Shown here: positions 1,962-22,402 of the stretch, one piece after another
Layout: every line of letters starts with the position of its first letter
How positions within the stretch are numbered: the stretch's first letter is position 1
Origin: a virus
Lineage: Duplodnaviria; Caudoviricetes
DNA length: 53,784 nucleotides
Virus record (IMG/VR): IMGVR_UViG_3300021446_000141
Location: 1-53,784 of that record
Reading direction: 5' to 3' (one strand)
Notes under the pieces: generated by a model
The model's database searches: none
What the model saw: the letters and a program-made list of their open reading frames with translations, nothing else
Told to the model about the DNA's origin: nothing
Position numbers and translations under genes: made by a program

Positions 1962-2134
1962 GTGCGGCCGTACGGGTTCCCGTGTGGCCGCACCGGGCGC
2001 GCGGTGCGGAAGGACACGGCATAGATCGGGTTGACAGGTTCGGGTGTGGCCGCAGGGGGTACGGCGTCAACTGAGTTGACAAGTTTTCACCCGAGATCGC
2101 AGGGTTTATCCGTACGGGTCCCCTCCTATCGTAC

Positions 2135-3959: not shown

Positions 3960-4094
3960 TACCCGTACGGTCGCATCCAGCCGGGTACGGCAGTACCCAT
4001 TCTTATCCGGCCGCAACGGGTACGGTGTAGAATGAGCTGACACCTTCTAACCGAAAACAACAGGTTTATCCGTACGGGTCCCCTCCTATCATAC

Positions 4095-4400
4095 ATGGCA
4101 CCACAAGGCCAAACTGACGATAGTTCGAGCGCAAATGGCGTTTCCCTCCCGATGATCGGGATGGATGTGAACGAGCACCTTCCACCAGCAGGGGAACCGT
4201 ACGCCCACGAGGACTTTCGTGTGGGGACTGACCGGTGCCCCGTGAACAATTGCGAGGGCCAACTGAATCGGGTCAAGGTCATGGCGGAGGACCCCAATTC
4301 CGGCGCACCCAGCCACATCGAGACCCTTGAGGTGTCCTGCCTCGAATGTCAGCGGATCGTGTTCAAGACCAACAGCGTGGAGTACGACCGGGGTGAGTGA
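4095..4400 (+). CDS. Zn-ribbon-like protein
   Basis: CPVNNC...CLEC; promoter block as for 2135 and 2633. Confidence 0.75.
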   Translation: MAPQGQTDDSSSANGVSLPMIGMDVNEHLPPAGEPYAHEDFRVGTDRCPVNNCEGQLNRVKVMAEDPNSGAPSHIETLEVSCLECQRIVFKTNSVEYDRGE

Positions 4401-4976: not shown

Positions 4977-5102
4977 GGCAGTACACATACCCGTGCTGCT
5001 GCACCCAGCCGAGTACGACCGCAGCAGGCACGGTACAGAACGATCTGATACGTTCTGATCCAAAACGAAGGGTTTAACTGCAAGGGTCCCCTCCTATTGG
5101 AT

Positions 5103-5495
5103 ATGGTGCGAGATTACCACCACGTCGAAACCAGTATCGAACCACAAATGCTCCGTGCGGTCGAAGACCTGCTCCGTGACGGCCACACGGGCAAAGGAAA
5201 CGCGATCACCTCGGGTGCGATCGCAGAGGCCCTCGATGAACCCGAGGGCCACGACACCAACCCGAACGTGCGTGATGCGGTCCGAGAACTCACGCATGTG
5301 GGCGTGCCGATCGCCTCGTGCAACAGAGGGTACTACGTGATGGACGACCCAGGAGAGGTCGACGACTACGTTCAGGACCTGCGGTCTCGGGCCGACTCCA
5401 TTCAGGAGCGGGCGGAGGCCGTCGAGTCGGCCGCACGTGAGGAGGGTGTCGTGCAGCCGAGCCTGTTCGGACGACTGCGAGCGGTCCTGTTCTAA
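5103..5495 (+). CDS. winged-helix DNA-binding protein
   Basis: ITSGAIAEAL...VRDAVRELTHVGVPIASCNRGYY pattern followed by a coiled coil. Confidence 0.7.
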   Translation: MVRDYHHVETSIEPQMLRAVEDLLRDGHTGKGNAITSGAIAEALDEPEGHDTNPNVRDAVRELTHVGVPIASCNRGYYVMDDPGEVDDYVQDLRSRADSIQERAEAVESAAREEGVVQPSLFGRLRAVLF

Positions 5496-5706
5496 GGGCC
5501 TGTGCGGCTGGAGTAATTTTCGTGGATCTGCAAATATATGGTGTAGCTGTATGAGCAGGGTGTTGCTGCATGAGTGAGGTGTCGCTGGAAAGGCTGGGTC
5601 CGACCACAGCCAGCCGAGTCGGGCCGCAAGGGGCACGGGTCTGCCCGGATTGATAGGTTTCGGGCCGAAACAAAGGGGTTAAGTGTGGCCGGTGCCATGT
5701 ATAGGT

Positions 5707-6075
5707 ATGGTACCAGAACCTACCACTCCGGCCGCACTGTTCGAGAAACTGACCGAACGAAAACAGAACGACCTCAAACACGACGCGTGGGAGGCAGCGA
5801 TTCGGCAGTTCAGCGAGGAGAACCCGTACCGTTACTCGGAGTTGGAGTTCGCCGAAGGGATCTCCTATGAGGACATGCGACTCGTCGTTCATGAAGACAA
5901 GGACACCGGGAAATACTTCGACATCGTTACGGGGATCTCGCCAATTACGGCCGAAGAGGAACGCCTCCGCCAACTCGTCACTGATTTCATGATCGTGTAC
6001 CGTGACGAACTACTGGGACGGATCAAGGAGGAGTCCTCGGCGTACGGTCCCGACGGCGTGTACCCTCACAAGTAA
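5707..6075 (+). CDS. hypothetical protein
   Basis: Leaderless ATG after GGGGTTAAGT; acidic. Confidence 0.8.
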   Translation: MVPEPTTPAALFEKLTERKQNDLKHDAWEAAIRQFSEENPYRYSELEFAEGISYEDMRLVVHEDKDTGKYFDIVTGISPITAEEERLRQLVTDFMIVYRDELLGRIKEESSAYGPDGVYPHK

Positions 6076-6077
6076 TC

Positions 6078-6320
6078 GGTTCGGGCCAGAAATTGATAGT
6101 TTGGGCGGTAAATCAACAGTTTGGGCCGTACCCAGTCAGTTTTGGCCGAAAATTGTGAGTTTGAGTCGTCGGGCTGGTTCGGGTGTAAATTCAGTGTTAC
6201 GCTCAGAAATTGTTGGTTATGACCCAAAATTGTCAGTTACGCTCGTAAATTTCTGGTTATGACCCAAAATCAACAGTTACGGCCGCAAATTGCTGGTTAT
6301 GGCCGCAGACTGACAGATAC
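6078..6320. repeat. 20-bp-period AT-rich array
   Basis: Units start at 6201, 6221, 6241, 6261, 6281, 6301 (gctcagaaat, gacccaaaat, ggccgcaaat ... gttay). Confidence 0.85.
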
Positions 6321-6401: not shown

Positions 6402-7103
6402 ATGCCACGTCAGGCAACACTCGGCGACAGTAGCCCAGCCTTCGACCACTATGATCAACACGCTGACCTGTATGATTACATACAGGGACGGCTCGACGCG
6501 ACGCGTCAGCGTTTCATGCAGGGAGACCGTGGGGTCAAGTGGCAAATGCTCGATAAGAGCGCGACCTTCGCCATTCTGTCCGCAAACACCCGCGTTAGGT
6601 TCCACGAGGCCGGTTTCGTGGACTTGATGGGTCTCACCTCACCCACCGAAGATGAAATCGCTGATGTGTTGCATGAAAACAATATCATGTACCACAACAA
6701 CAAAGCGAGATACATCTACGAAAACCGACGTGACGCCGACCGGGGGGCCATTATTTCAGCACTGGAGGCCGGTGAAATCGACAAAGCCCACCGCCTGATA
6801 ACCGAGGAGTATCTCGGTTTGAGTTACATGAAGGCCGCGTTTACCCTCGCTATGTTGGGGTTCGACCGCAAAATGTGTGTCGACACGAATGTCGCCCAAA
6901 ATGTGGGGTTAGAGGGTAAGGTGGGGGCGAACCTGAAAAATATCGGACAGTACGAGGACCTCTGTAAGGAGGTGCGCGAGGTGTATCAGGACCTAAATGA
7001 GTGTGTCAGCAACTTTATCTGGCAGTGGGCCACCTTCTCACAGTTCCGGGGAGAAGTGACAACTCACGACCCATTCTTCCTCTCGGTTGGAATAGATTTG
7101 TAA
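6402..7103 (+). CDS. HhH-superfamily DNA glycosylase-like protein (Ogg-like)
   Basis: NKARYI and GLSYMKAAFTLAMLGF...CVDTNV resemble the HhH-Lys and downstream Asp of archaeal Ogg glycosylase/lyases. Confidence 0.7.
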   Translation: MPRQATLGDSSPAFDHYDQHADLYDYIQGRLDATRQRFMQGDRGVKWQMLDKSATFAILSANTRVRFHEAGFVDLMGLTSPTEDEIADVLHENNIMYHNNKARYIYENRRDADRGAIISALEAGEIDKAHRLITEEYLGLSYMKAAFTLAMLGFDRKMCVDTNVAQNVGLEGKVGANLKNIGQYEDLCKEVREVYQDLNECVSNFIWQWATFSQFRGEVTTHDPFFLSVGIDL

Positions 7104-7145
7104 TCGGCCGAAACCTTTTTAGGTCTGGGTTCCTTACAATGGGTT

Positions 7146-7820
7146 ATGGCACAATCAGAATGTCCTGTTTGTAGTGAAACAAAACAGTCACTCGGGAAAC
7201 ACTGGGCACGGTCTGCCAAATGTGATTACCCTGATCTTTTCGATGAGGAAAAGTCATTGTTAGATAGTTTACTGATTGGTGATGGAACATTGGATAGGTA
7301 CTCTGATAAGAATAACCGTCTATCCATAGGGGTAATCAGAGAGGAATATATTGACTATCTTGCAGAAAAACTCGATTGGTTAGTTGCCGATAAATATGTT
7401 ACTTCACCAGAAGGTGTACGTAGAAACAATAAATATTACAAGATAAATACTATTTGTCATCCATTTTTCAACCAAATGGAGGAAAGATGGTACCCGAATG
7501 GGGAAAAGTTCATGCCTGATACACTACAAATAACCCCCACCTTCCTTACACACTGGATATGTCAAGACGGTAATCTTTCTTGGAACCAATCAGGTACCGC
7601 CAGATACAAACTTGGCAATATACATTTTGGCGAACGCGAAGAGTTCTTTACTGAAAAGTTCAAGGACCTTGGATTTAACGTGGTAATTACCAATTATGAA
7701 CTCGGGTTTTCATCAAAAGATACTGATAATCTCCGTAGATTTATGGGCGGTCCATTACCGGGATACGAATACAAGTGGGCTGAAAACAAAGCAGAATACG
7801 ACAAAAAGAAACATCTTTAA
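7146..7820 (+). CDS. free-standing LAGLIDADG-type homing endonuclease with N-terminal Zn finger
   Basis: SLLIGDG and HWICQDG motifs; CPVC...H...C; markedly AT-rich and Lys-rich compared with neighbours. Confidence 0.8.
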   Translation: MAQSECPVCSETKQSLGKHWARSAKCDYPDLFDEEKSLLDSLLIGDGTLDRYSDKNNRLSIGVIREEYIDYLAEKLDWLVADKYVTSPEGVRRNNKYYKINTICHPFFNQMEERWYPNGEKFMPDTLQITPTFLTHWICQDGNLSWNQSGTARYKLGNIHFGEREEFFTEKFKDLGFNVVITNYELGFSSKDTDNLRRFMGGPLPGYEYKWAENKAEYDKKKHL

Positions 7821-8005
7821 GTGTCAGTCGGCGTGTACTTGTAGGGGCGGATTCTTTCCGGGTTTGTGCCTACTGGAAGGAGATGGGGCCGGACATGTCA
7901 GATTTTTCTGCACCGTGCCGATGGCGGAAACGCACCGCACAGATTAAACTGACATGAATAGGTACAAACCGACGAGTTTAAGTGTTACCGTATCCAAGTA
8001 GAGGT

Positions 8006-8365
8006 ATGGCACCAAAAGGCCACAAGCGAGCGTTCGCTCGGTTGAACATCGACGAGGACACCCTTACCGGGGAACCCGTCTGGGCGGTCGCCCGCGAATC
8101 GGACGAGATAGAGTTGTATCAGGAGGACCCCGACCGCGAGGAACTACGTGGGGGCGACGTTGCCCTGATTGAAGATAAGGGCGAGATGATCGTGAAAATC
8201 GGTATGGAGGAAGAACGGACGTATCCCGACGAATGGAACGGTGGGTACACAAACGAACGTGGGTACCCTCTCATCAACCTCCGCACAGGTACGGAGATCG
8301 ACTGGTTCCGTACCCTGCCGAGCAACGACAACGGTGCATGGACCCCCCTCGACATGGTGATGTAG
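8006..8365 (+). CDS. hypothetical protein
   Basis: Leaderless gene behind dyad plus TTTAAGT. Confidence 0.8.
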   Translation: MAPKGHKRAFARLNIDEDTLTGEPVWAVARESDEIELYQEDPDREELRGGDVALIEDKGEMIVKIGMEEERTYPDEWNGGYTNERGYPLINLRTGTEIDWFRTLPSNDNGAWTPLDMVM

Positions 8366-8482
8366 GTCAGACTTGTCAATTCGTTCTACACCGTGCTTTT
8401 CCGGAGGCATACGGCTTAGATCCAACTTACATGAACCAGTGCAATTCAAAGGGTTTAAGTGCCACCGCACCCATATATCTGT

Positions 8483-8830
8483 ATGGGAAACAGTGATCCC
8501 CAAACGGCCGAGAACAGTGACATGGGACTGCACCTATCCGGGTGCGGTATCATTGATGGCGCGGAACACGCAAACCGTGAATACATGGAACGGAAACTGG
8601 AGGTCCGTTTCGAGGACGACGAAAAGGTCGTCTTCGCTGACACAAGTGGCCTCCAGTGGGACGAGTACATAGCACGTTTCCTCGATACCGGTCAACCCCT
8701 ATCGCGGTTTCTGGCCACAATGAATCGGCTCGGGCGCGAACATACCCCGAACGATGGGATCGACCACTGGGAGAAGGCATACCCTCTTGTGTTCGACAAG
8801 AAAGGTAACGGGTTCGGGGGCGAAGCATGA
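8483..8830 (+). CDS. hypothetical protein, paralog of 2135-2497
   Basis: VVFADTSGLQWDEY, YPLVFDKKGNGFGGEA. Confidence 0.85.
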   Translation: MGNSDPQTAENSDMGLHLSGCGIIDGAEHANREYMERKLEVRFEDDEKVVFADTSGLQWDEYIARFLDTGQPLSRFLATMNRLGREHTPNDGIDHWEKAYPLVFDKKGNGFGGEA

Positions 8831-8997
8831 CTGACATGCGCGTGAAAGTTCACCCCCACGGAAGTTTCACTGGTATCGACATAGAAGGATTCGAGGAAGG
8901 TAATCTGGCCTTCGATCACCAGAAGGGTACCCTACTGGTACACGCGGACGGGGGCGAGGAACCGACCCACAAGATCGACCTACCGCCGGACGAGTGA
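8827..8997 (+). CDS. small hypothetical protein (56 aa)
   Basis: ATGA overlap; MTDMRVKVHPHG...DLPPDE. Confidence 0.65.
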   Translation: MTDMRVKVHPHGSFTGIDIEGFEEGNLAFDHQKGTLLVHADGGEEPTHKIDLPPDE

Positions 8998-8998
8998 C

Positions 8999-9139
8999 AT
9001 GACACCGAACGCTACCGAGTACCCTGGGAAAACGGTGCACTGTCCGGGCGAACCATGCGACGAGTGCGAGTGTGAATACTTTGACATCGGGCGCGAGGCA
9101 GCTATCTGTATCGACTGTCACAAAGAATATTGGCCCTGA
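8999..9139 (+). CDS. Zn-finger microprotein (46 aa)
   Basis: CDEC...CIDC. Confidence 0.65.
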   Translation: MTPNATEYPGKTVHCPGEPCDECECEYFDIGREAAICIDCHKEYWP

Positions 9140-9308
9140 TATGTAAGGTGGAGCCGGACCTGTCAATTCGTTCTATACCGTACCCTTGCGGAACTACACG
9201 GCTCGGTTTCATCTGACATGTATCCCGTGCGGCTCCAAAGGTGTCGTGTACCTGCAACTATCCGGTGCGATTCAAAGGGTTTAAGTACTACCGGTGCCAT
9301 GTATGAGT

Positions 9309-9893
9309 ATGGACGGAACCCACCCGTTCGACCCGACCGAGGTAACGACCGACGAATTGGCGCACACCATCGGTGCCGAATATGTCAACTGTTCATTTCA
9401 AAGCGAACAGTCGGAATTGACACAAGAATCGTACCGTAACATCGCGCGCATTAACGGCGGAAAGTTCGCCTCGCTTATGTCCGAGGTTGACGTGGTGTTT
9501 ACCGAGGACGACCCATACGCCAGCTATCAGGACATGAAAGAGAAGGTAGAGGAAACCGATACCCTCAAAGTGTTCTCCGGTGGCACCCACCCGGACCCTC
9601 GTTTCATGACGGAAACCGAAAACGTCATCGGAAGGGCCGTACACGACTACTACGGTCACCTTTCGGCCGACGTGAACTTTTCCTTTGAAGGTGAGTTCCG
9701 TAAGTGGCAACATGTAAAAGACGATTACTTCCCGCGCGACCGGGAGGTGCTCTTTGCGGAGGTAGTGGGTCAACTTTCGGCCGCAAAGTTTCTCGACGGT
9801 GGGTTTGCCGACCCCCGGTTTGAACAGCGTGAGATTCGTGCGCCCCAGCGGTGGATTGATTGGACGAAAGAACATATCGCTGCTAAAGAATAA
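9309..9893 (+). CDS. hypothetical protein with RAVHDxxGH putative metal-binding motif
   Basis: ENVIGRAVHDYYGH...FSFEGE...AEVVGQ. Confidence 0.8.
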   Translation: MDGTHPFDPTEVTTDELAHTIGAEYVNCSFQSEQSELTQESYRNIARINGGKFASLMSEVDVVFTEDDPYASYQDMKEKVEETDTLKVFSGGTHPDPRFMTETENVIGRAVHDYYGHLSADVNFSFEGEFRKWQHVKDDYFPRDREVLFAEVVGQLSAAKFLDGGFADPRFEQREIRAPQRWIDWTKEHIAAKE

Positions 9894-9894
9894 C

Positions 9895-10029
9895 ATGGCT
9901 ACATATAAATGTCCCTCGTGTGAAAGTAAAGGTGTGGCGACTGATCGGGAAACTGATAAGTTTCTGTCGTGTGAGACCCCCACGGACGAATGTGAGGTTC
10001 TTCTTTTCGGGCGTGAGGAGGCCGTCTGA
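9895..10029 (+). CDS. Zn-finger microprotein (44 aa)
   Basis: MATYKCPSC...C......C. Confidence 0.65.
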   Translation: MATYKCPSCESKGVATDRETDKFLSCETPTDECEVLLFGREEAV

Positions 10030-10149
10030 AAGACCTGTCAGATCGTTCTACACCGTGCTGTTGCGGAAGCACACGGCATAGATTCGACTGACACTTTCCC
10101 GTTCCGATTCAAAGGGTTTAAGTGCCACCCGCACCTTTCCCTAATCGGT

Positions 10150-10569
10150 ATGGTAGACATTACCGCCACCGTCGAACTCGCAAAGTTCCGAACCACCAGC
10201 GACCGCTCCTCGGTCACAAATTCGGAGGGTTCGCTCAAAAGGCAGCAGAATTACGAGGCAGAATTGGAGATTCTGCTCGAACCCCACCCGAATTTGGACG
10301 CATACGACCCCGCCGTCGAAGGCGAACTTTCGTGTGTCGCACAACTGATAGAATCATACGCAGGCGGTCTCGACGACAACGAAGAACTCGTGTCAGTCGA
10401 AGACTACAAGATGCACGGGAGTTATGACCAGTGGATCGAGCAGGCCGAAGCCTTCGCGTCCGAACGGCCTGACATGTCAGTCGACGAGGCTCTCACGGAA
10501 TTTGGTCGGTGGTCGTGTACCGATGGGAGAAGGCTCGCGCAGGTATCGCTCGAACACAGGCAAGCATAG
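10150..10569 (+). CDS. hypothetical protein
   Basis: Leaderless gene behind dyad plus promoter; followed by a long T tract at ~10581-10590. Confidence 0.8.
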   Translation: MVDITATVELAKFRTTSDRSSVTNSEGSLKRQQNYEAELEILLEPHPNLDAYDPAVEGELSCVAQLIESYAGGLDDNEELVSVEDYKMHGSYDQWIEQAEAFASERPDMSVDEALTEFGRWSCTDGRRLAQVSLEHRQA

Positions 10570-10711
10570 TAACGCAGACATTTTTTTTTTGCGGAATAGA
10601 TGTGTCAATTCGTTCGTAGCGGTGCCTTTGCGGAAGCACACGGCTTAGATTGGCCTGACATGAACAAGTGCAAACCAAAGGGGTTAAGTACTACCGTACC
10701 CATGTACGAGT

Positions 10712-11047
10712 ATGGTACCGAACACTGCCACCGAACCCGAACGAAGTACCCCCGACACGACCGTCGAGATTCACAATATCTCGGAGGTACCCGAACGCGA
10801 AAAAATCTTGGTCCACTTCACGGTGCGCGACTACGACACTTACGAGTGGATCGGCGACTTCTTCGTTCGTTACACCGAGCGTGACGGGACCTACCACAAC
10901 TTCGGATACTCGGGGTTCCGACACGGCAGCGGCCTGTACATCGAACACCGCCCGTCCGGCGGAATCTTGGAACACTGTACGGACCTTCTCGAAGACGAGG
11001 GATACGACGCGATGCAAGGGTTCCGATCGGGGATCGACAAGAGGTGA
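10712..11047 (+). CDS. hypothetical protein
   Basis: Leaderless gene behind dyad plus promoter. Confidence 0.8.
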   Translation: MVPNTATEPERSTPDTTVEIHNISEVPEREKILVHFTVRDYDTYEWIGDFFVRYTERDGTYHNFGYSGFRHGSGLYIEHRPSGGILEHCTDLLEDEGYDAMQGFRSGIDKR

Positions 11048-11053
11048 TTAGTT

Positions 11054-11155
11054 ATGGGTAAATATGCCGAGTGCCACCGATGTGGCTCCGAATACGACCC
11101 GACAGAGTACTACACCTGCCCGTACTGTGTGCCCGAATGGCAGCGTAACCGGTAG
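11054..11155 (+). CDS. Zn-finger microprotein (33 aa)
   Basis: GAGGTGA SD-like sequence; MGKYAECHRCG...CPYC. Confidence 0.65.
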   Translation: MGKYAECHRCGSEYDPTEYYTCPYCVPEWQRNR

Positions 11156-11273
11156 GGCCGGACCTGTTAGTTTTTTCGGAACCGTGCCGTTGCGGAGCTA
11201 CACGGCATAGATTTAATTGACATGAACCAATGCAAACCGACAGGTTTAACTCCCACCGCACCCATGTACCTGC

Positions 11274-11501
11274 ATGGGCATGATCCCCATCTGCGACGGC
11301 TGCGGTGTACGCATGGACGGAAACCGACCGGTCGCCGACACGAACCGTTCGGGCCACTGGTGCGCCCAGTGTGCCGGGACCGAACCCGACGACCGCGAAC
11401 GGGTAGAGGTGCCGGGGGACCTCGGTCGGCCGGGTGCCCCCGACGGCGAGGTGTCGGTGTTCAGGGGCGAACGTTGCGGCCGACGGAGGGCCGACTATTG
11501 A
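11274..11501 (+). CDS. Zn-finger small protein
   Basis: CDGCG...CAQC; behind dyad plus promoter. Confidence 0.7.
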   Translation: MGMIPICDGCGVRMDGNRPVADTNRSGHWCAQCAGTEPDDRERVEVPGDLGRPGAPDGEVSVFRGERCGRRRADY

Positions 11502-11611
11502 GCGACAACTGGCACTGTTCGTGTGACAACCCGGACGTGGTGTTCCCATACGCGGGAACCCTTGCGGAAGGAACCGCACCCCTGTGTGAAAACTGTGGAG
11601 AACTGATCTGA
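11498..11611 (+). CDS. Zn-finger microprotein (37 aa)
   Basis: TTGA overlap, GGAGG upstream; CSC...CENCG. Confidence 0.55.
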   Translation: MSDNWHCSCDNPDVVFPYAGTLAEGTAPLCENCGELI

Positions 11612-11730
11612 AAGAAACACCTGTCAATTTTTTCGGGACCGTGCCGCTGCGGAGGCACACGGCTCAGTGTGGTCTGACATGAATCAGTACAAACCGAAGG
11701 GGTTAAGTCCCACCGCACCCATGTACGTGT

Positions 11731-11850
11731 ATGGCACAGATGACCATCGAGTGCGACGAGTGTGGCTTCCTCGTGAACCCAGCAAAGGAGGTACGGTGCC
11801 CGTGCGGGCATACCGACCTCGATCCCGGCGCACCCGGAGGGGTTCCATGA
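11731..11850 (+). CDS. Zn-finger microprotein (39 aa)
   Basis: MAQMTIECDECG...CPCG; behind dyad plus promoter. Confidence 0.7.
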   Translation: MAQMTIECDECGFLVNPAKEVRCPCGHTDLDPGAPGGVP

Positions 11851-12026
11851 GTGACCTCAACTGTACCGAGTGCGGTATGACCGCCTCGTATGCGGACGCA
11901 AACATCGCCGATCTGCGCCGATCGTGCGGGGAGGGCAACGACGGCGTGCCTTCCGAGACCGAGACAGCGGGCGGGTCCGTCCGATACGTGTACAGTGGAA
12001 GCAAACACGACTGGATAGAGACCTGA
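11847..12026 (+). CDS. Cys-containing microprotein (59 aa)
   Basis: ATGA overlap; CTECG. Confidence 0.65.
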   Translation: MSDLNCTECGMTASYADANIADLRRSCGEGNDGVPSETETAGGSVRYVYSGSKHDWIET

Positions 12027-12144
12027 AAGGATAGCTGTCAATTTTTTCGGTACCGTGCCCTTCCGGAGGCACACGGCTCGATCTGTCCTGACACTTCTCA
12101 GTGCGATTCAAAGGGTTTAAGTGCCACCGTACCCATGTACGAGT

Positions 12145-12420
12145 ATGGCACAACAATGCCACCACGAGCGAATGGAGTTCCCGCACCTGAAAGAAGCACT
12201 CGACATGTTCGGGGACGAAAAGGACGCGTTGAAGCGGAAGGGGAGGGGTACCCTCCTCATGAGAGAGGTGTGCCCTGACTGTGGGTTCGACCGTGCGGAG
12301 GCAACGGTGCATGGGTTTTGGGTCGGGGAGTCCGTTTCGTGCCTGAACTGCTCGGAACGGTTCGAGGCGTCCGACTTTCCCGACAGAGAGGAACTGGAAG
12401 AATTAGAGGTTGACAGGTAG
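12145..12420 (+). CDS. CPxCG Zn-ribbon protein
   Basis: CPDCG...CLNC; behind dyad plus promoter. Confidence 0.75.
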   Translation: MAQQCHHERMEFPHLKEALDMFGDEKDALKRKGRGTLLMREVCPDCGFDRAEATVHGFWVGESVSCLNCSERFEASDFPDREELEELEVDR

Positions 12421-12847
12421 AGCCTGACCTGTCAGATCGTTCTTTACCGTACGGTTGCGGAAGCACACGGCTCAGATTCAATTGACACTAACCCCCGTGC
12501 GGTGATACGAGAGGCCGGAGGCCTCTCGGCATGACGAGAGAGCTTCGCTCTCTCGAACCACTGCACATGTAAGGTGGTGCTGCAAAAGTATCGTGCCGCT
12601 GCAACTATACTACCAGCCGGGGACCGATTCGGGTTCGTTCCACACCTTGTCACACATCGGACACCTCCAGGTGTGGTAGTACTCGGTCGGTGGGTCGTCT
12701 ATCACCTCGCCGGTTGCACCACACTCGGTGCATCGGTCGGTCTCGAACGTCGGGATATGGTCGAGCGCCATACCCACCCTTGTGGCCCGATCCCTATAAA
12801 TCCCCCAGAAACGGAGGGTTTAAGTTTACGGGGTGATGTGTGGGGGT

Positions 12848-13429
12848 ATGGCCCGAACGATTACGGCCGACGAACGGGAAACGTTCGACCGCATCGCTGG
12901 CGAGATTTACCAGCACGAACACCTCAATATGAAGGAAATCGCGGACATGGATACGGCCGGATTCGAGCGGCTCGGGACCGGACTTGCCCGTGTGGTGTTC
13001 GACCTCGAAGACGGCTACGTCCTGAAATGTGCAACGAGGATCGACTGGGACAAACACTGTCCGATGGAAGGTGGTTCCGGTATCGTCCAGAACCGGAACG
13101 AGGTTCGTCGCCACGAGGACATGGATCGTGACGACCTGCCGGATTGGTTCGCACAGGTAGAAGGTCACCACGAAAAATATTTGTGGATCGTACAGGAAAA
13201 AGTCACTGAAGGAGGTGTTACCACGGCCAAAATTCAGGAGATGAAGTCCGACCTGTCAGATATGTCAGGAATTGTGGTGTTCGACCTCCACTGTGGAAAC
13301 GTTGGTACGACCGAGAACGGTGATAAAATAATCGACTACGGTTGGTGGGAAACAATTGACTGTCAACGTGACTACGAGTCGATAGTTGAAGACACGCGAC
13401 AGTTCGTTCAGGAAACATTAGGCGTCTGA
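12848..13429 (+). CDS. minimal protein-kinase-like enzyme, paralog 1
   Basis: LGTGLARVV (Gly loop), VLK, NE, DLHCGNVG (catalytic loop), IIDYG. Confidence 0.8.
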   Translation: MARTITADERETFDRIAGEIYQHEHLNMKEIADMDTAGFERLGTGLARVVFDLEDGYVLKCATRIDWDKHCPMEGGSGIVQNRNEVRRHEDMDRDDLPDWFAQVEGHHEKYLWIVQEKVTEGGVTTAKIQEMKSDLSDMSGIVVFDLHCGNVGTTENGDKIIDYGWWETIDCQRDYESIVEDTRQFVQETLGV

Positions 13430-13548
13430 CAGAAAAAATGTCAGATCGTTCTATACCGTGCCTTTGCGGAGACACACGGCTTAGATTCGGCTGACACTTC
13501 TTCGGTCGAAATCGAAGGGGTTAAGTGGTACCGTATCCAAGTAGGGGT

Positions 13549-13779
13549 ATGGCACACAAGCCATCCCACCGAGCGCAGAAACGGGCCGTCGAACTAAGTC
13601 GCTCTCCGTTCGTGAAAACGGCGGAAGTGCGCGAAGACTCGCCAGGTCGGGCCCGGATCGTGGTGCGGGCGACCGACTTCGGCGGAAAGGTCACGGACGC
13701 GATCAACTACGGCGAGTGGAGCCTCTCGACCCTTTCGGGGGTCGAACCCGACGGTACGATCAAGTTCGAGCTGTTGTGA
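13549..13779 (+). CDS. hypothetical protein
   Basis: Leaderless gene behind dyad plus promoter. Confidence 0.75.
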   Translation: MAHKPSHRAQKRAVELSRSPFVKTAEVREDSPGRARIVVRATDFGGKVTDAINYGEWSLSTLSGVEPDGTIKFELL

Positions 13780-13917
13780 AATAAACGATTATTTTTTGTG
13801 GGTAGACGTGTTAGATCTTTCGTAGCGGTGCATTTGCGGAAGCACACGGCGTCGTGAGGTTTGACATGAACCAGTACAAAACGAAGGGATTAAGTACCCC
13901 CGCACTCATGTACTGGT

Positions 13918-14136
13918 ATGGCACAAGATGCCACCCCGCAGTGGGAAAAGCTGACCGAAGCGTTCGAGGACAGTCCTGCGTGCGCTACGTGCGCTCGTAA
14001 GGAAAAGGCCTCTCAGGGTATCTGTAAGTGCCCTGAGTGCGATGAAGTCATTACGGACGGGTCGACCGCCAACATGGTGTCGTTGCTGCACACCCACCTG
14101 AACGAGGCACACCCGGAGGTCGCGTACAGGTACTGA
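13918..14136 (+). CDS. Zn-finger small protein
   Basis: CATC, CPEC...HxxxxH. Confidence 0.75.
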   Translation: MAQDATPQWEKLTEAFEDSPACATCARKEKASQGICKCPECDEVITDGSTANMVSLLHTHLNEAHPEVAYRY

Positions 14137-14293
14137 TGTACCTGTAAACTTGTTGACGTTGCTGCAAACGCTCGTGTCGCACCTGTCAATTACGCCGAAG
14201 CGGTGCTCTTGCGGAAACACACGGCTCCGTACGGTCTGACACATCTCCAGTGCAAAACGACAAGTTTAACTACCCCCGGCACCGTGTCACGGT

Positions 14294-14881
14294 ATGGCGC
14301 GAGAAGTTACTGCCGACGAACGCGCGACGTTCGACCGCATCGCTGCCGAGGTCTATTCCAAGGCAGCTAACACGTTGGTGTCCGAATACGAGGAGATCGA
14401 CATGAACGGGTTCGACCTCCTCGGCGGAGGGGTGGGCCGGCTGGTACTCGACCTCGGCGATGGGTACGTCCTCAAGTGTGCCACGAAAACCAACTGGGAG
14501 GCAGATGTGGTCGCAAAGGCCTCCAGCGGTCTGGTTCAAAACCGTAACGAGGTCCGGCGCGACGAGGACATAGATCATGAGGACCTGCCCGATTGGTTCG
14601 CACGGGTGGAGGACCACCACGAACAGTACCTTTGGACCGTACAGGAAAAGGCCGAACCCGGCGGGGTTCCTGCCGACCGAATCGTGGACATGGAGATGAA
14701 ACTCAATGACATGACAGACGACCTATGTATCTTCGACCTCCACAACGACAACGTGGGTCGGTTGAATGACGGTAGCGTGATAATTGACTACGGTTGGTGG
14801 GAACGCGTGGACGAGGATCGTGACTACTCGGCGATAGTTGAGACTGCACGACACTTCGTGGAAGGTATGTTGGGCGTCTGA
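14294..14881 (+). CDS. minimal protein-kinase-like enzyme, paralog 2
   Basis: LGGGVGRLV, VLK, DLHNDNVG, IIDYG; colinear with 12848-13429. Confidence 0.8.
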   Translation: MAREVTADERATFDRIAAEVYSKAANTLVSEYEEIDMNGFDLLGGGVGRLVLDLGDGYVLKCATKTNWEADVVAKASSGLVQNRNEVRRDEDIDHEDLPDWFARVEDHHEQYLWTVQEKAEPGGVPADRIVDMEMKLNDMTDDLCIFDLHNDNVGRLNDGSVIIDYGWWERVDEDRDYSAIVETARHFVEGMLGV

Positions 14882-15023
14882 CACGCACCCGGCCCGTGTG
14901 GCCGGACGTGTCAGATCGTTCTACACCGTGCTCTTGTGCAACCGTACCGCTTAGATCGAGTTGACATGATACCCGTACGGCCGAAAACGATGGGTTTATC
15001 CGTACGGGGTGTGTTGTGTTGGT

Positions 15024-15395
15024 ATGGAGCACACCACTCCAACCGACGCGATCGAATCGGGCGACCGAATCGTTGCGAACGACTCCGCCGAAATGGTCCG
15101 ATCGGGCCTTCTCGGTACCGTCAAGGGTATCCTGCCCGAGCAGGGAGAGGCCAAGTACGGGGTCGTCGAGTTTGAGTCCGGCGACACGAAGACCCTCGCA
15201 CTGCCCCTGCTGACCCCCGCGTCCGAATACGACGGCCACCTGTTGATCGACGCTGCACGTGATCACGCGACGCGGGTCGAGACCGGGTGCGACAAGTGTC
15301 CCGTGTGTGAGGCGACCACGCGCCACGTCGGGTCCCACCGATACATCGAAGGGTTTGAGGTGTGCGCGGGTTGTGACAAAGAGTTCGCGCCCTGA
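15024..15395 (+). CDS. SH3/KOW-like plus Zn-finger protein
   Basis: IESGDRIV...GTVKG...VEF; CPVC...CAGC. Confidence 0.7.
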   Translation: MEHTTPTDAIESGDRIVANDSAEMVRSGLLGTVKGILPEQGEAKYGVVEFESGDTKTLALPLLTPASEYDGHLLIDAARDHATRVETGCDKCPVCEATTRHVGSHRYIEGFEVCAGCDKEFAP

Positions 15396-15587
15396 ACGGA
15401 AGTAGGGGCCTTCCGGCCGATCTGTCAATTCTTTTTTCCACCGTGCCCTTGCGGAAGCACACGGCATAGATTGAATTGACATATATTCCCTGTGGCTGGA
15501 CAAGTAGGGGTGTTGCTGCACGGGTATCGTGTACCTGCAAAAGTATCGTGCCGCTGCAAAGAACAGGTGTTGCTGCACCCGTCCGTT

Positions 15588-15773
15588 CTATTCCCAGTCG
15601 CCCAAGTTGACAACAGTTTGTTCGTTTCGCGCCTCGACCACTTTGTTCCGGTGCTGATCAGTCAGGGTCAGGTGACCGGTCTCCCTGCTGGCGAACGCGA
15701 GCATTTCAGGCTCACGGGGGAGGTGGTCGTCGGGATCGGCCGCGTCGAACTCGGTGGGGGTCTGGTACACCAT
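15588..15773 (-). CDS. small hypothetical protein
   Basis: Behind the inverted dyad (15815-15872) plus GGGTTTAAGT on the minus strand. Confidence 0.75.
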   Translation of the reverse strand: MVYQTPTEFDAADPDDHLPREPEMLAFASRETGHLTLTDQHRNKVVEARNEQTVVNLGDWE

Positions 15774-15911
15774 ACCCGTACATGGATGCGGTGGGACTTA
15801 AACCCATCGTTTCGTGTCAGGCAGTTTTCGGCCGTACACATCCGCAAACGCACCGCGACGAACGAGTTGACAGGTTCTGACCGCAAAAAAAAATTACAGC
15901 AAGCCGTTGTG

Positions 15912-16142
15912 TCAGCAGCGGTACAGTTCGATGTAACCGTCACCCAGTTTGCCCACAACGAACTCGGTACCCTCGATGATGTCAGAGATCCGGAAGTCCA
16001 CGAACCCACCGTGGTACCTGATCCGGTCCCGTGCGCTGTTGCCCTTCTTTTCCTGATGTTTGTAGACCGCCCTCCGGTCGTCGTCGGACTGGTTGATCGT
16101 GCGAACCTTGTCGATCACTTCAGCATGGGTCATGTCTCCCAT
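15912..16142 (-). CDS. small hypothetical protein
   Basis: Minus-strand CGAAGGGTTTAAG at leaderless spacing; T tract after the stop. Confidence 0.7.
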   Translation of the reverse strand: MGDMTHAEVIDKVRTINQSDDDRRAVYKHQEKKGNSARDRIRYHGGFVDFRISDIIEGTEFVVGKLGDGYIELYRC

Positions 16143-16765
16143 ACAGGTAGGTGGCACCGCTACCCCTTAAACCCTTCGTAAATACAGGGTTCCTCGGCCT
16201 AAAATTAACTGTTTGGGCCAGAATTCGTGGTTTGCAGCCTAAAATTCGTGGTTTGGCCGACCGAAATTTGTCGTTAGCGCGCGCCGGAATCCATAATGGT
16301 TCTACACGGCCGTTGTGACCGGATGTTGACACGTGTAGAACCATGAGAGTTGAGATCGAGACCTACATGATCGTTCATGCAGGACCGGAGACGCACGGCG
16401 CGCGCACAATTGACATACCCCCCAAAGATATTTTATCGATCCGCAAAAGCATTTTTCGGCCATACCAGATAGATTTGCCGTAGGAGAAAAAATTCGGCCA
16501 AAGCAGGCATATGCAGGCAACACCTTTATACGTATCAACCCTCCATATTCGGTATCAAGTAGGAAAGATTCATTGTAAGCCCTTACCCGCGTGGGTGGTT
16601 TCGCGCGGGCTACGGTATCCAGCCAATGAGTCCCCGCGTTCGGCGCGTTGCGGTCCGAGCGTGACGGGATAACGGCGAAAAGCGCGTAGTCCACACTAAA
16701 CCGTGGAGTATTGACCCGACCCATGCCGGAGCGAATGAACAAGACTGGGATAAACAGGGAGAACC

Positions 16766-17938
16766 ATGAACGAACCAGAAAAGCGCGAACGAACGGCAAC
16801 CAATACGACTATGAGTGAAACCACCGACGCGACGACCGACGCGGAGAACAGTGCAACCGAATACGGCCGAGAGCGAACGATTTACGGTAACCGGTTGGGT
16901 GTCAACCCCGAAGATGTTCCGCGGAAAACCGACCTTCAACCCAGCGACTTTGAAGGTGGCGACGTTTCCTTCGGGTGGGGCGGACAAATAGCGGATTCGA
17001 CAGTCAAAAAGACCGTCATCCGTGACTTCTACGACTTCGGTGAGTCGTGGGAGACCGTAAAAGCGGAGACTATCAGCACGGCCGAAAAGGCCTTTCATAG
17101 TGGCGCTATCGACAGATTCGAGCGCAACGGCCGTGAAACGCGCGAGCATTTCATGGATACCACCGACCGCGAACGTGAACAGCTAATCGCGTATGCGGTC
17201 GGCGTTCAATTCGCGTCCTATCGGTGCGAGGAGGCGAGGCTCGCGTCAATAGTGCGGAATACAGAGGGTACGGGCCTTAACGCGGCCAAACAGATTGTCC
17301 GTAAAAGCCCCAAAGGGGGCCAAACATTCCCCCTATTAACGGACATGATTCAGTCCGCCCAACACGTCACACTGGCGAACATTCTTGTTGAAGAAGGTGC
17401 AGAAAGCGCGCGCCAGTATGCGATTGAAAACATAAGCGGTATGAGCGAACGCAAAGCGGGCTTTTGGCTCATGCTATTGGGTTTCGGCGAATCGTTCGCG
17501 CTCGACGTGAACGTTCGCGCGATCATTACCCCATACGTTCAAAAAGTCGTGAACATCGCGCCGGACTCAATCGACGCATGCCAGAAATGCAGAAACGCCT
17601 GCATGAATGACAAAAACGACAACCCGAGGATAGACGGCCCGTCAAACAAGATCGAAAACGGGTGGTATGCCGAACCCGGCATTTACGCCCGCAACCGGTC
17701 TTATTTGGGGTATCATATGATTGACCATGTTGGCGAACATGGTCACGGAGCCGAACAATATGCGGATTTGATCATTCGGTTCTTCCGTAACGAACTCGAC
17801 AAAGATTTGAGTCGTCGGACCGCGACTCAAATCATGTTCAATTCGGGTATGTCGTTCACGGAATCGGCGTCGAATGAAGCGCCGAACCGTGATGAAAAAT
17901 TCTACACCCACCAATACTTTTACGACGCAGTTCTATGA
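16766..17938 (+). CDS. HhH-superfamily glycosylase-like protein (divergent, 390 aa)
   Basis: ISGMSERKAGFWLMLLGF...ALDVNV parallels the motif in 6402-7103; start may be 16811. Confidence 0.6.
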   Translation: MNEPEKRERTATNTTMSETTDATTDAENSATEYGRERTIYGNRLGVNPEDVPRKTDLQPSDFEGGDVSFGWGGQIADSTVKKTVIRDFYDFGESWETVKAETISTAEKAFHSGAIDRFERNGRETREHFMDTTDREREQLIAYAVGVQFASYRCEEARLASIVRNTEGTGLNAAKQIVRKSPKGGQTFPLLTDMIQSAQHVTLANILVEEGAESARQYAIENISGMSERKAGFWLMLLGFGESFALDVNVRAIITPYVQKVVNIAPDSIDACQKCRNACMNDKNDNPRIDGPSNKIENGWYAEPGIYARNRSYLGYHMIDHVGEHGHGAEQYADLIIRFFRNELDKDLSRRTATQIMFNSGMSFTESASNEAPNRDEKFYTHQYFYDAVL

Positions 17939-20192: not shown

Positions 20193-21380
20193 CTACTCGA
20201 ACCGCACGATGGCGTGCCCGTCGATCTCCATCGAGTCCACGAAGCCGTCGTAGTTGTAGGCGTCCGCGCCCGAACCGACCTCTCCGGTCGCAGTGGACCC
20301 GTTGATGTAGTCGTTGTCGTTTTTGTTCGCTTCCTCGGTCGTGGTCTTTTCGAGCGAACCCGTGACCGAGAACTCGTACTGTGCCGCCGGACCTGTCCCT
20401 TCGATGATAATGGTTTTCATGTTTCCGTTTTGATTGTAGATTTCCGTCGCAACCGCTGCGTTCACCATACCGGCCTGCTGCCGGTAGGACGATTCGTCGA
20501 TGGGTTGGGCCGTGTCGAGGAGTTGTCGTTTGAGATCCTGACCGGTGAGGCCCATGGTCTCCTGTACGGCCGCAGCCACGCCAGCCGTGATGGGAGCAGC
20601 AGCCGAGGTCCCGCCAAAGTAGCGGTTATCCTCACCAGCCGGCTCGATCACGATGTTGGTGCCAGGTGCTGCCAGATCTATTGCCTCTCCGTAGTTGCTG
20701 AATCCGGCCAGTTCCATGTCACCCCCCTCGTTGAAGGGCTCCCGTACGGCCCCAACGGACAGACATTCGTCGTACACTCCCGGGTAGTTCCACTCGGCCG
20801 GGTCGTCCGTCTCGTTGTTTCCTGCGGACTGAATGATCAGCATGTCCTCGGAGACGGCCCGGTCGACCGCATCCCGCAGGCTCTGGGACTCGTACCTATG
20901 GTACCGCGAGACGTTCAGGATGTCACATCCGTCATCGATGGCTTGGTGAATCGCCTCGTCCAGGTCACTGTCCCACGATCGGTAAGCTCGGATCGGGGTG
21001 TTAATCACCCCGGACGCGTCCTGGTCGTTGTTAGTTTCGCCTGCGAGCGTAAGGGCCACCTGGTCCTCGTGGGTTACCTTGTCCCCACCATGACAGGGGC
21101 TGGTGTCGTCGCCCTTGAGATCATACCCCCCGACGTAGTTGTCGTCCAGTTCGTTGTCCTCACAGTCGATCGGATCGCCCATGATTCCGACCGTGACGCC
21201 CGCGTTGTAGCCGTGGTGTCTCCAGTACGGCTCCATCCCGACCGCCTCCTGGTGCCAGGCCTGGTACTGGGAGTACGTGGGATCGTTCGGTTCCTCGGAG
21301 TGGGCCGATCCGACCCCACTGAACGCGGTGAGGCCGAGCGATGCACCTGCCGCCGTAGCGAGATACTGTCTCCTGTTCAT
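20193..21380 (-). CDS. Tat-exported subtilase (S8 family), divergent
   Basis: MNRRQYL Tat signal; SAGN, YPG, FSNYG, DLAAPG and GTSAAAP motifs; C-terminal beta-rich domain. Confidence 0.85.
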   Translation of the reverse strand: MNRRQYLATAAGASLGLTAFSGVGSAHSEEPNDPTYSQYQAWHQEAVGMEPYWRHHGYNAGVTVGIMGDPIDCEDNELDDNYVGGYDLKGDDTSPCHGGDKVTHEDQVALTLAGETNNDQDASGVINTPIRAYRSWDSDLDEAIHQAIDDGCDILNVSRYHRYESQSLRDAVDRAVSEDMLIIQSAGNNETDDPAEWNYPGVYDECLSVGAVREPFNEGGDMELAGFSNYGEAIDLAAPGTNIVIEPAGEDNRYFGGTSAAAPITAGVAAAVQETMGLTGQDLKRQLLDTAQPIDESSYRQQAGMVNAAVATEIYNQNGNMKTIIIEGTGPAAQYEFSVTGSLEKTTTEEANKNDNDYINGSTATGEVGSGADAYNYDGFVDSMEIDGHAIVRFE

Positions 21381-21804: not shown

Positions 21805-22317
21805 GGGTGCGGTCAAATCCCATGGGTACTGTTGAACTCCTCGGATACTGCGGGAGACCGCCGACCTGGTGTGTTACCAGTGAATGACAGTCGTAAAACG
21901 ACTGTCCTTGCCGTATGGAAGTCGCACAGCGACTTCCAGAGCCTGGCTGTTGCTGGCCAATCAATTCTCCCTCTCCAAAACGACCCAGCGGGTTGCTACC
22001 CCAACACTGGTACGGAGGTCGACCAAAACTATGGAAATCTCCGAACTGGTACGGTCGAACCACCGCCGGCCGTTCCGGAACCAATCCTCTGCCGTGCTGA
22101 AGGACCCACCACGGTCCTTTCCCAGCACGATCTCTTGGGCTACCACAGTTCGTATAGGGACGTTCAATCCCTTGCCGTCTCCGTTGTCATCTCTCATCTC
22201 CTCAACCGACCCACCGGGGTCGACCTCTTTCAAACATGAGAGATAGTACCGGACCAGTTTTCATCTAACTGTGGTAGAACAATTACCTGTTGAGCTTCCC
22301 CCACTGCGACCGCACCC
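21805..22317 (-). ncRNA. putative ~513-nt structured non-coding RNA, copy 2 (complete)
   Basis: 10-bp terminal helix 21805-14/22308-17; 11-bp helix 22140-50/22267-77; several more hairpins; own promoter; paralog at window start; no credible ORF. Confidence 0.75.
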
Positions 22318-22335
22318 CCAGCTTTGCTGGCCAGG

Positions 22336-22402
22336 TACTTAACTCTTTCGGCTCTTGAAATGGTAACGTTTCACATGAGACCTGTACCAAAAGACTTAAG
22401 TG
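22336..22402. promoter_or_regulatory. divergent BRE-TATA promoter pair
   Basis: Minus strand CCGAAAGAGTTAAGTA (22336-22351) faces the ncRNA; plus strand CAAAAGACTTAAGTG (22388-22402) faces the morphogenesis operon. Confidence 0.75.

Follow-up and report, generated by a model that had tools for sequence, protein, structure and literature searches.

In Halogranum tailed virus 1 (HGTV-1), most left-arm open reading frames (ORFs) are preceded by a motif that combines a TATA-like box with an inverted repeat. This motif was likened to the promoter stem-loops of T4-type phages, and roles in transcription regulation and genome shuffling were suggested for it, the latter only by analogy with those phages (PMC3950731). 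The PeSL elements of T4-type phages are cassettes of ~100 bp that join an early promoter to a terminating stem-loop and lie upstream of ORFans in hyperplastic regions; recombination between them explains indels in phi1/RB49 and yields mini-circles (PMC2839356, Arbiol et al. 2010). A further group, the class I repeats of the halovirus HF2, are 56-58 bp long, occur in seven copies over 49 kb with motifs termed alpha, beta and gamma, and contain a B recognition element (BRE), TATA box and transcription start, their promoters having been demonstrated experimentally (Russ et al. 2021, PMC8707807). Here we analyze a stretch of 53,784 nucleotides (IMG/VR virus record IMGVR_UViG_3300021446_000141; hereafter the window, meaning this whole stretch) in which 15 full copies of a 58-59 bp imperfect palindrome, which we call the dyad, are distributed over 8 kb of small genes.

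Our analysis makes it likely that terminator-dyad-promoter cassettes bound each small transcription unit of this array, that a protein bound to the dyad controls the adjoining promoter, and that the repeated modules serve homologous recombination. A profile built from the copies yields exactly 15 full-length matches (45-64 bits, E <= 3e-13), all within 7896-15872, and a search of all 53,784 bases with this profile found no further full copy. The pattern TGTCA-N10-14-CCGTG-N12-16-CACGG has 11 strand-matches in the window, compared with 0.00 in 100 dinucleotide-preserving shuffles; a looser pattern has 13 forward and 14 reverse matches, again confined to the interval between 7896 and 15872, and none in a backwards control. 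Thirteen copies measure 58 bp and two 59 bp. These pattern, profile and shuffle counts confirm the copy number, coordinates and near-constant length given in the first-pass annotation of this DNA. Fourteen copies lie on the plus strand, and the remaining one (15872-15815) is inverted and heads the minus-strand gene 15773-15588, its parts following one another as in the other modules. Every dyad follows a stop codon by 6-75 nt, and the profile search placed none inside a gene or in the remaining 45 kb. With about five to seven half copies included, the element is restricted to 1-16 kb, and the 38-kb structural part contains none.

The information content of the dyad resolves into seven boxes, TGTCA / TTC / CCGTGC / TTGCGGAA / CACACGG / AGA / TGACA, and its autocorrelation peaks at lags of 9 and 18-19 bp. 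Conservation is box-like, with spacers that vary in sequence and keep a fixed length. Standard pairs account for 68.1% of the cells of the full mirror structure, far above the 32-44% obtained after sliding the partners by one to three columns, and the dyad symmetry is therefore real. It extends into the 12-nt arms between outer and inner boxes, which had been taken at first for free, non-complementary spacers; TTC(T) on the left in fact mirrors AGA(T) on the right. The center is a near-palindrome, TTSCGGAA, and what remains of the asymmetric TTGCGGA core noted earlier is a symmetry-breaking G in 13 of the 15 copies (TTGCGGA in 12; two have the full palindrome TTCCGGA). This asymmetry points in one direction relative to the downstream gene, the inverted copy included.

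The symmetry is not accompanied by compensation. The covariation score is 0.131, compared with 0.130 in shuffles (231 of 500 shuffles score as high), and the inner-box variants CGGTG (four copies), CCGTA (two) and CACCG (two) are uncompensated on the opposite side. RNA folding of the 15 copies gives a mean z of only -1.7, with z >= 0 in three. Symmetric, box-wise conservation without compensation is the expected appearance of a site for a symmetric protein on duplex DNA, and the pattern fits a protein site on double-stranded DNA better than it fits a hairpin. A double-stranded protein-binding geometry tied to promoters, as had been suggested, is thus upheld by the fixed spacing, the asymmetry that follows transcription and the symmetry without covariation.

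The conserved unit exceeds the dyad. Direct-repeat families of 94-136 nt comprise the dyad, a spacer, a BRE/TATA element and the initial transcribed region; the 58-bp element described earlier is part of this longer repeat. A TTTAAG-like hexamer follows the TGACA box of 10 of the 15 copies by 22 nt (seven copies) or 23 nt (three), in agreement with the spacing reported for most dyads. The gap is 28, 12 and 61 nt for dyads 13, 15 and 3, respectively, and a promoter is missing after the copies at 12430 and 15423. From hexamer to ATG the distance is exactly 23 nt in 12 of the 13 dyad-linked promoters and 27 nt in the other. A BRE/TATA-like box 23 nt from an ATG resembles the haloarchaeal promoters mapped in HF2, where the TATA box starts near -26 from the transcription start (PMC8707807). 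Given this spacing and a TATA box near -26 as in HF2, transcripts from the dyad-linked promoters would start within ~3 nt of the ATG and would be leaderless. Of the leaderless ATG proposed earlier, the fixed hexamer-ATG distance is observed and the leaderless start is predicted. The 15 modules are as follows.

Dyad 1: 7896-7954, plus strand; 59 bp, T5C in left arm; TATA 7977-7982; ATG 8006; gene 8006-8365 (119 aa).
Dyad 2: 8374-8431, plus strand; outer right box TTACA, palindromic center TTCCGGA; TATA 8454-8459; ATG 8483; genes 8483-8830, 8827-8997 and 8999-9139, plus strand.
Dyad 3: 9161-9218, plus strand; 61-nt gap with one 19-bp GCTGCAA-type repeat; TATA 9280-9285; ATG 9309; genes 9309-9893 and 9895-10029, plus strand.
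Dyad 4: 10036-10093, plus strand; AGATC in left arm; TATA 10117-10122; ATG 10150; gene 10150-10569.
Dyad 5: 10603-10660, plus strand; T10 run 12 nt upstream; TATA 10683-10688; ATG 10712; genes 10712-11047 and 11054-11155.
Dyad 6: 11165-11222, plus strand; outer box TGTTA, T6C in left arm; TATA 11245-11250; ATG 11274; gene 11274-11501, plus strand, and a small ORF downstream.
Dyad 7: 11622-11679, plus strand; T6C in left arm; TATA 11702-11707; ATG 11731; genes 11731-11850 and 11847-12026.
Dyad 8: 12036-12093, plus strand; palindromic center TTCCGGA, T6C in left arm; TATA 12116-12121; ATG 12145; gene 12145-12420.
Dyad 9: 12430-12487, plus strand; no promoter; AGATC in left arm; followed by a twin hairpin (12497-12567); faces the convergent minus-strand gene 12771-12610.
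Dyad 10: 13439-13496, plus strand; AGATC in left arm; TATA 13520-13525; ATG 13549; gene 13549-13779.
Dyad 11: 13809-13866, plus strand; T6 run upstream, AGATC in left arm; TATA 13889-13894; ATG 13918; gene 13918-14136.
Dyad 12: 14184-14241, plus strand; TATA 14265-14270; ATG 14294; gene 14294-14881 (paralogue of 12848-13429).
Dyad 13: 14909-14966, plus strand; degenerate center TTGTGCAA, AGATC in left arm; class-B-like TATA, TTTATC, ~28 nt downstream of the dyad, plus strand; ATG 15024; gene 15024-15395.
Dyad 14: 15423-15481, plus strand; 59 bp; no promoter; T6C in left arm; faces a convergent minus-strand gene; four 19-bp GCTGCAA-type units follow at 15497-15578.
Dyad 15: 15815-15872, minus strand (inverted); T9 run upstream; 12-nt gap; TATA 15802-15797; ATG 15773; gene 15773-15588.

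The 19-bp units in this list belong to a second repeat family (GTGYYGCTGCAA-type, 19-bp period) with one to four copies per site, found at 5528-5590, 9230-9257, 12561-12604, 14150-14183 and 15497-15578. They adjoin promoter-less or atypical dyads and precede the promoter at 5680, and are possibly sites for another DNA-binding protein.

The two halves of the dyad are used differently. A composite TGAYA-N20-25-TATA-N22-28-ATG occurs 16 times in the window, always on the plus strand and between 2077 and 14967 (shuffle mean 0.28); five of these matches are promoters in 1-6 kb that have only a right-half profile match or only a TGAYA box. Since the right half is used at these promoters without the left half, CACGG-N12-TGACA placed 22-23 nt before the TATA box serves the left-arm promoters generally as an upstream element. 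The half-site promoters are these.

Two right-half copies: 2005-2036 and 2050-2081, plus strand; then a 22-23 nt gap, a class-B TATA box (GTTTATCC) and ATG 2135.
Similar half-site promoters: TGAYA box at 2575, 4038, 5046 and 5651, plus strand.

We also observed a second promoter class (GGTTTATCCGTACGGGTCCCCTCCTATCRTAYATGG) at 2096-2157, 2594-2655, 4056-4117 and 5064-5125, in which conservation extends into the first codons (MAPxxQT...). Promoters of this class are preceded by GTGCGGCC...GGCCGCAC hairpins and right-half dyads.

On the opposite side of the module, motifs associated with transcription termination accumulate. A run of at least five T occurs within -30 to +17 of the dyad in eight of 15 copies, five of which carry it as T5-6C within the left arm, and AGATC is present in the left arm of five; taken together, 12 copies have a T-run or AGATC in the left arm or flank. 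Termination in Haloferax volcanii reached 95% of transcripts at a T5C stretch, 11-27% at AGATC and 59% at a tested hairpin, and a bound protein was suggested by the authors as a possible termination roadblock (PMC7237163). Dyads 9 and 14, which lack a promoter, sit where plus-strand runs meet convergent minus-strand genes, and a promoter without a dyad exists at 12848. [quoted passage not shown] One of the convergent junctions contains an additional element.

Twin hairpin: 12497-12567; two 9-bp stems closed by an 8-bp stem, between convergent units; z -5.09, with 0 of 200 shuffles folding as well.

This twin hairpin is probably a bidirectional terminator. Rfam, searched over 7000-17000 at E <= 1, returned only two chance microRNA matches, both on it. 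About 35 nt within it (12526-12560) have a depth of 350-1750x in all four halite metagenome runs considered below, compared with 5-20x for the virus, and varied loose ends flank them at either side; this is a short element common to very abundant other genomes.

The observed features, namely the anatomy, copy number, fixed spacings, coupling of orientation to transcription, symmetry without compensation, analogous arrays in two relatives and strain differences that end in modules, can be assembled into a single model. Each small transcription unit would be bounded by one composite regulatory cassette of about 110-136 nt that follows the upstream stop codon and comprises, in order, T5-6C or AGATC in or just before the left arm, the 58-bp seven-box palindrome, a 22-23 nt spacer, a BRE with a TTTAAG-type TATA box and, after exactly 23 nt, the putatively leaderless ATG. 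We propose that a symmetric oligomer, made of a viral or host protein, binds the palindrome in duplex DNA and would set how active the downstream promoter is by way of the promoter-proximal half, CACGG-N12-TGACA. The same protein may serve as a roadblock or insulator that, aided by the T-run or AGATC, stops read-through from upstream. Homologous recombination between modules would add, delete and swap cassettes, each of which would arrive with its own terminator and promoter. About 20 near-identical modules in direct orientation would be the substrates for such recombination.

Strain comparison bears on this last step. Seven halite-metagenome runs from two studies contain parts of the stretch, and four were compared (X1-X4); X4 covers 14 of 30 bins and X2 has holes, and gaps were not counted as evidence. 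The runs are kept as assembled contigs, which break at repeats and drop rare forms. Essentially no difference from the window is seen in X1 or in the covered parts of X2 and X4. The other study supplied X3, a diverged strain whose contigs contain four structural differences. In one 2,598-nt contig (depth 15.4; side 255), 465 extra letters are enclosed by two copies of 13862-13921. This repeated segment of 60 nt corresponds to module 11 from its TGACA box through spacer and TATA box to the ATG, and lies outside the dyad core. X3 accordingly has one extra cassette of ~525 bp, or the window strain lost one. In a second event (side 255), 123 other letters stand in place of 8367-8428, a segment that covers most of dyad 2. 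A third difference, from 11738 to 12429 and spanning 690 bp, is a weak joint (side 46). The fourth difference, a joint from 6913 to 7822, skips 908 bases (side 44), and the gene for a LAGLIDADG homing endonuclease is consequently absent from X3. Presence/absence polymorphism of this kind is typical of homing endonucleases. In the window the gene (7146-7820; phrog_11023, E 2e-38) directly follows an endonuclease III-like gene (6402-7103) and lies in a low-GC patch (42.5% GC for 7001-8000).

The divergence of X3 shifts piecewise along the array, from 4.8% (7822-8366) to 1.2% (8429-11179) and 2.1% (11253-12344), then 7.3% and 10.9% (12532-14604) and 4.5% (14657-16288), which fits mosaic exchange. 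The X3 insertion ends in the repeated module and outside the dyad core, as the PeSL model predicts; breakpoints at the dyads had been expected if these were recombination sites, and this well-resolved insertion ends in the promoter-proximal segment of the module. The X3 differences support shuffling by homologous recombination and not integron-like site-specific recombination. The cassette genes are not all unrelated, as the first-pass annotation had it: the arm contains two pairs of paralogues, 2135/8483 (35% identical) and 12848/14294 (55% identical), so cassettes have been duplicated. Both members of the second pair (12848-13429 and 14294-14881) are assigned to phrog_4301 and have the motifs VLKCAT, DLHxxNVG and IIDYGWW, which read like a minimal protein-kinase core. 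Neither has a Pfam match, and phmmer of 14294-14881 against PDB sequences found nothing below E = 0.86.

The array lies in a virus related to HGTV-1. The window, with a completeness estimate of 46%, encodes terminase subunits, a portal, a major head protein, a tail sheath, a tape measure and baseplate proteins downstream of 23 kb (PHROG matches), and its tail sheath is 48.8% identical to that of HGTV-1 (Halomagnusviridae), compared with only 23-25% for sheaths of the HF1/HF2 group. Judged by these matches, the window represents about half of an uncultured haloarchaeal myovirus whose nearest cultured relative is HGTV-1, and the 8-kb stretch is part of its hyperplastic, ORFan-rich arm. None of the 21 cassette proteins reached the Pfam cut-off. 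Only four of 45 left-arm proteins had a tblastn match in HGTV-1, of which positions 1-50,000 and 100,001-143,855 were covered, or in G005, a second HGTV-1-like contig whose small terminase subunit is 43% identical.

Arrays of 19-24 dyad-plus-promoter modules are present in each of these relatives, and their dyads are unrelated in sequence. In HGTV-1, small genes at 128-142 kb (128.6-142.2 kb) are separated by at least 21 intergenic repeats of 68-125 nt. The core of these repeats is a CTCCTCGTG-N-CACGAGGAG palindrome with mirror AT boxes on either side, and in the direction of the genes the order is T-run, palindrome, spacer of ~25 nt, BRE/TATA, ~23 nt and ATG. Each of the 19-22 intergenic repeats of G005 (0.5-14.8 kb) has, flanked by T-runs and a BRE/TATA box, a pair of ATAAC-N5-GTTAT palindromes amid TCCGGA/TCCGCA boxes. 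The three arrays have in common an endonuclease III-like gene that lies within them, in two copies in the case of G005. The window dyad pattern has no match in the whole HGTV-1 record, and the CTCCTCGTG-N-CACGAGGAG inverted repeat has none in the window with up to three mismatches allowed. The same layout with different dyads and genes indicates that the architecture is conserved while dyad sequence and gene content are turned over. The first-pass annotation did not recognize the dyad as a known element, and the literature we searched contained no description of a TGTCA...TGACA dyad; nor do two papers related to HGTV-1 speak of it as a repeat, promoter or palindrome. In kind, a described halovirus repeat class does match, the HGTV-1 motif (PMC3950731), which weakens the claim of novelty; in sequence, it does not.

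We considered several other explanations for the dyad. It could act only as a hairpin, at the transcript or single-strand level, serving as an intrinsic terminator or attenuator in the manner of bacterial PeSLs with no protein recognizing it. The constant location of a palindromic element shortly after a stop codon would suit this function, as would the perfect 9-bp stem of the HGTV-1 counterpart, the existence of two copies without a promoter and the effect of the hairpin tested in H. volcanii. The poor folding of three copies, the modest mean z, the lack of covariation and the unmatched inner-box variants run counter to it. In addition, conservation is confined to boxes and includes the center, which would be the loop; the T-run precedes the palindrome instead of following it; and the 22-23 nt phasing to the TATA box and the lone right half at other promoters would be left unexplained. 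We therefore regard a hairpin-only function as unlikely. Still less probable, in our estimation, is that the dyad is a hitch-hiking or selfish palindrome, similar to a miniature inverted-repeat transposable element, that gene conversion keeps uniform and that has no function beyond the promoter. Its uniformity within the genome and its difference between related viruses are what concerted evolution predicts, and the terminal inverted boxes TGTCA/TGACA would befit such an element. Against this, conservation is box-like and the spacers vary in sequence but not in length, the orientation to genes and a fixed distance to the TATA box are common to all 15 copies, none has entered a gene or the rest of the window, and searches of 185,579 prokaryotic species genomes and of the viral and metagenome collections turned up no copy.

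Integron cassettes are promoterless and read from a common promoter, and their attC sites are kept as folded single strands and recombined by an IntI-type tyrosine recombinase. The first-pass annotation offered an integron-like shuffling array as one interpretation; the missing half of the genome would then have to encode a site-specific recombinase that cuts in the asymmetric core and moves cassettes. The four-box symmetric layout with its asymmetric center does resemble attC and other sites of the core type, the small cassettes contain mostly ORFans, X3 shows a cassette-sized insertion and a replaced dyad, and only ~46% of the genome is in hand. Phage_integrase (PF00589) and Resolvase, however, have no match in the 53.8-kb window of this ~46% complete record, in line with the earlier remark that no recombinase is visible, and all PF00589 control genomes were positive. 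Thirteen of the 15 cassettes have their own TATA box and predicted leaderless ATG, the duplicated X3 ends exclude the TTGCGGAA core, covariation of the folded-attC kind is absent and the relatives share the architecture with unrelated dyads. In the 94 kb of HGTV-1 covered (1-50,000 and 100,001-143,855), RadA, a Holliday junction resolvase and a RecB-like nuclease are annotated and no integrase is. An integron-like origin is, in our judgment, highly improbable. Membership in the HF1/HF2 class I repeats (Haloferacalesvirus) has hardly any probability left. Such promoter-bearing repeats exist, as had been noted, and share with the dyad a length of 58 bp and an intergenic position in a halovirus early region (PMC8707807). 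They are nevertheless a different element: HF2 alpha has no match in the window with up to two mismatches and the gamma core none with up to one, the single match to beta (one mismatch, at 7814) is outside any dyad, the promoter parts lie inside the HF2 repeat, and the sheath is distant. Identity with class I is refuted at the level of both sequence and architecture.

Several results weigh against the protein-bound cassette model that we favor. Promoter, terminator and leaderless status were all predicted from sequence alone. Four of the 15 copies fold better than all of their own 200 shuffles (z -3.5 to -4.5), and a hairpin may contribute in these best-pairing copies. Pfam detected no DNA-binding domain among 44 left-arm and flanking proteins, and the sole candidate for a dyad-binding protein, 5103-5495, comes from a weak lead and a low-confidence fold; as a regulator it was set aside, with no Pfam match, a language-model lead to HTH_11 that scores only 0.85 and an AlphaFold single-sequence predicted local distance difference test (pLDDT) value of 48. 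The strain evidence consists of assembled contigs of one run with two firm events (those with side 255); the X3 insert is known by its length alone, and the 690-bp joint is weak. Signs of mosaic exchange within the dyads themselves are weak or ambiguous (Mantel test of L against R, r = 0.29, p = 0.026). Finally, no other genome with the same dyad was found in IMG/VR, JGI metagenomes, 185,579 species genomes or a phage collection, where records of the window's own or very near genomes may have been left out, so that close kin could be hidden. The four-box pattern gave one locus in IMG/VR, inside a coding region of an unrelated phage contig, and three single matches in the species genomes, all bacterial. 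The core pattern gave one single match in IMG/VR and 35 in JGI metagenomes, of which none is a full dyad by profile (best 26.5 bits, compared with 45-64). Megablast of 7800-16000 against the phage collection and tblastn of 12848-13429 against phages found no match, and searches with proteins 16766-17938, 12848-13429 and 6402-7103 found no array-bearing relatives in IMG/VR.

Other features of the window lie outside the array. A 144-nt direct repeat (51-194 and 22208-22351, 85% identical) brackets the whole 22-kb ORFan arm, and its second copy immediately precedes the terminase module. In the interval from the ORFan arm to the terminase genes, the minus strand encodes a subtilase (Peptidase_S8, E 2e-27; 20193-21380). 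Iteron-like 20-bp repeats, AAATTnnnnGTTAYGRCC, occur at ~780-1030 and 6070-6310, with at least six tandem copies at 6187-6306; these runs may mark an origin of replication or a site for partition. Downstream of the baseplate genes, the final ORF (52106-53782), which is open-ended, contains five tandem 123-nt (41-codon) repeats at 52569-53288 and is probably a repeat-domain tail fiber. ARAGORN found no tRNA in the whole window.

We raise, tentatively and with more doubt than conviction, the possibility that each HGTV-like lineage owns a private symmetric operator of 55-65 bp together with an oligomeric regulator that fits it and is encoded by the virus. In that case, one bound protein per module would block read-through from upstream and gate the next promoter, and the ORFan arm would consist of insulated, co-timed single-gene units that recombination reshuffles without breaking regulation. 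The unrelated dyads of the window, HGTV-1 and G005 would then be orthogonal regulatory codes, which could limit productive recombination or cross-activation between co-infecting relatives. How archaeal tailed viruses time and insulate their early genes is still very poorly understood, and in the portions of the literature surveyed HF2 is the only halovirus whose promoter repeats have been examined by reporter assay. The window provides a third well-resolved example of one module per ORFan in the HGTV-1 lineage, and the second strain adds population-level support for modules as sites of cassette gain and loss. A compact module with 15 natural variants is also a ready-made mutational series.

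Set against the described systems, the HF1/HF2 class I repeats are the most superficial likeness. They resemble the dyad in length, intergenic position and location in a halovirus early/middle region, but belong to another virus family, have no dyad and carry the promoter within the repeat; the window TATA box lies 22-23 nt outside the 58-bp dyad and is inside the repeat only if the module of ~110 nt is taken as the unit. Arrays of attC sites share small cassettes, imperfect palindromes of similar length and paired inner and outer boxes, and differ in that the window cassettes have their own promoters, no integrase match, no structural covariation and a junction outside the core.

The HGTV-1 intergenic motif, reportedly described by Sencilo et al. 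in 2013, is much closer. In both viruses the array occupies the same arm next to the terminase module, with the endonuclease III-like gene embedded in it; a T-run, a symmetric element (~50-55 bp in HGTV-1), BRE/TATA, ~23 nt and ATG follow one another ahead of small ORFs; and the same double role in transcription control and shuffling is proposed. The HGTV-1 element has a perfect 9-bp stem with a 1-nt center and flanking TATA-like AT boxes, whereas that of the window has GC-type boxes over 58 bp and a conserved 8-bp center without a real stem. The dyad-to-TATA gap is ~40-45 nt in HGTV-1 and 22-23 nt here, and the genes point away from the terminase in HGTV-1 and toward it in the window.

With PeSLs the array shares repeated intergenic cassettes of ~100 bp, mostly directly upstream of ORFans in an ORFan-rich hyperplastic region, a terminator for the upstream unit combined with a host-type early promoter (in the window, a putative terminator and a candidate promoter), and strain indels or replacements that end in the repeats (here, the two firm X3 events). 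PeSLs use a bacterial sigma-70 promoter instead of an archaeal BRE/TATA with predicted leaderless mRNAs, and have a true G/C hairpin at variable positions in the promoter instead of a fixed-geometry imperfect palindrome upstream of it; the two are analogues and not homologues. Mini-circles were shown for PeSLs, and the data for the window are assembled contigs. Overall, the comparison supports the view that recombination shapes the array as described for PeSLs, by homologous exchange between repeated regulatory modules. Composite cassettes are already known in kind, having been noted in HGTV-1 and well described in T4-type phages. What the window adds is this 58-bp seven-box palindrome, its likely character as a protein site and the proposed division of labor between its halves. 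It further shows that relatives have replaced the dyad sequence, and that two strains differ by a cassette whose boundaries lie in the module.

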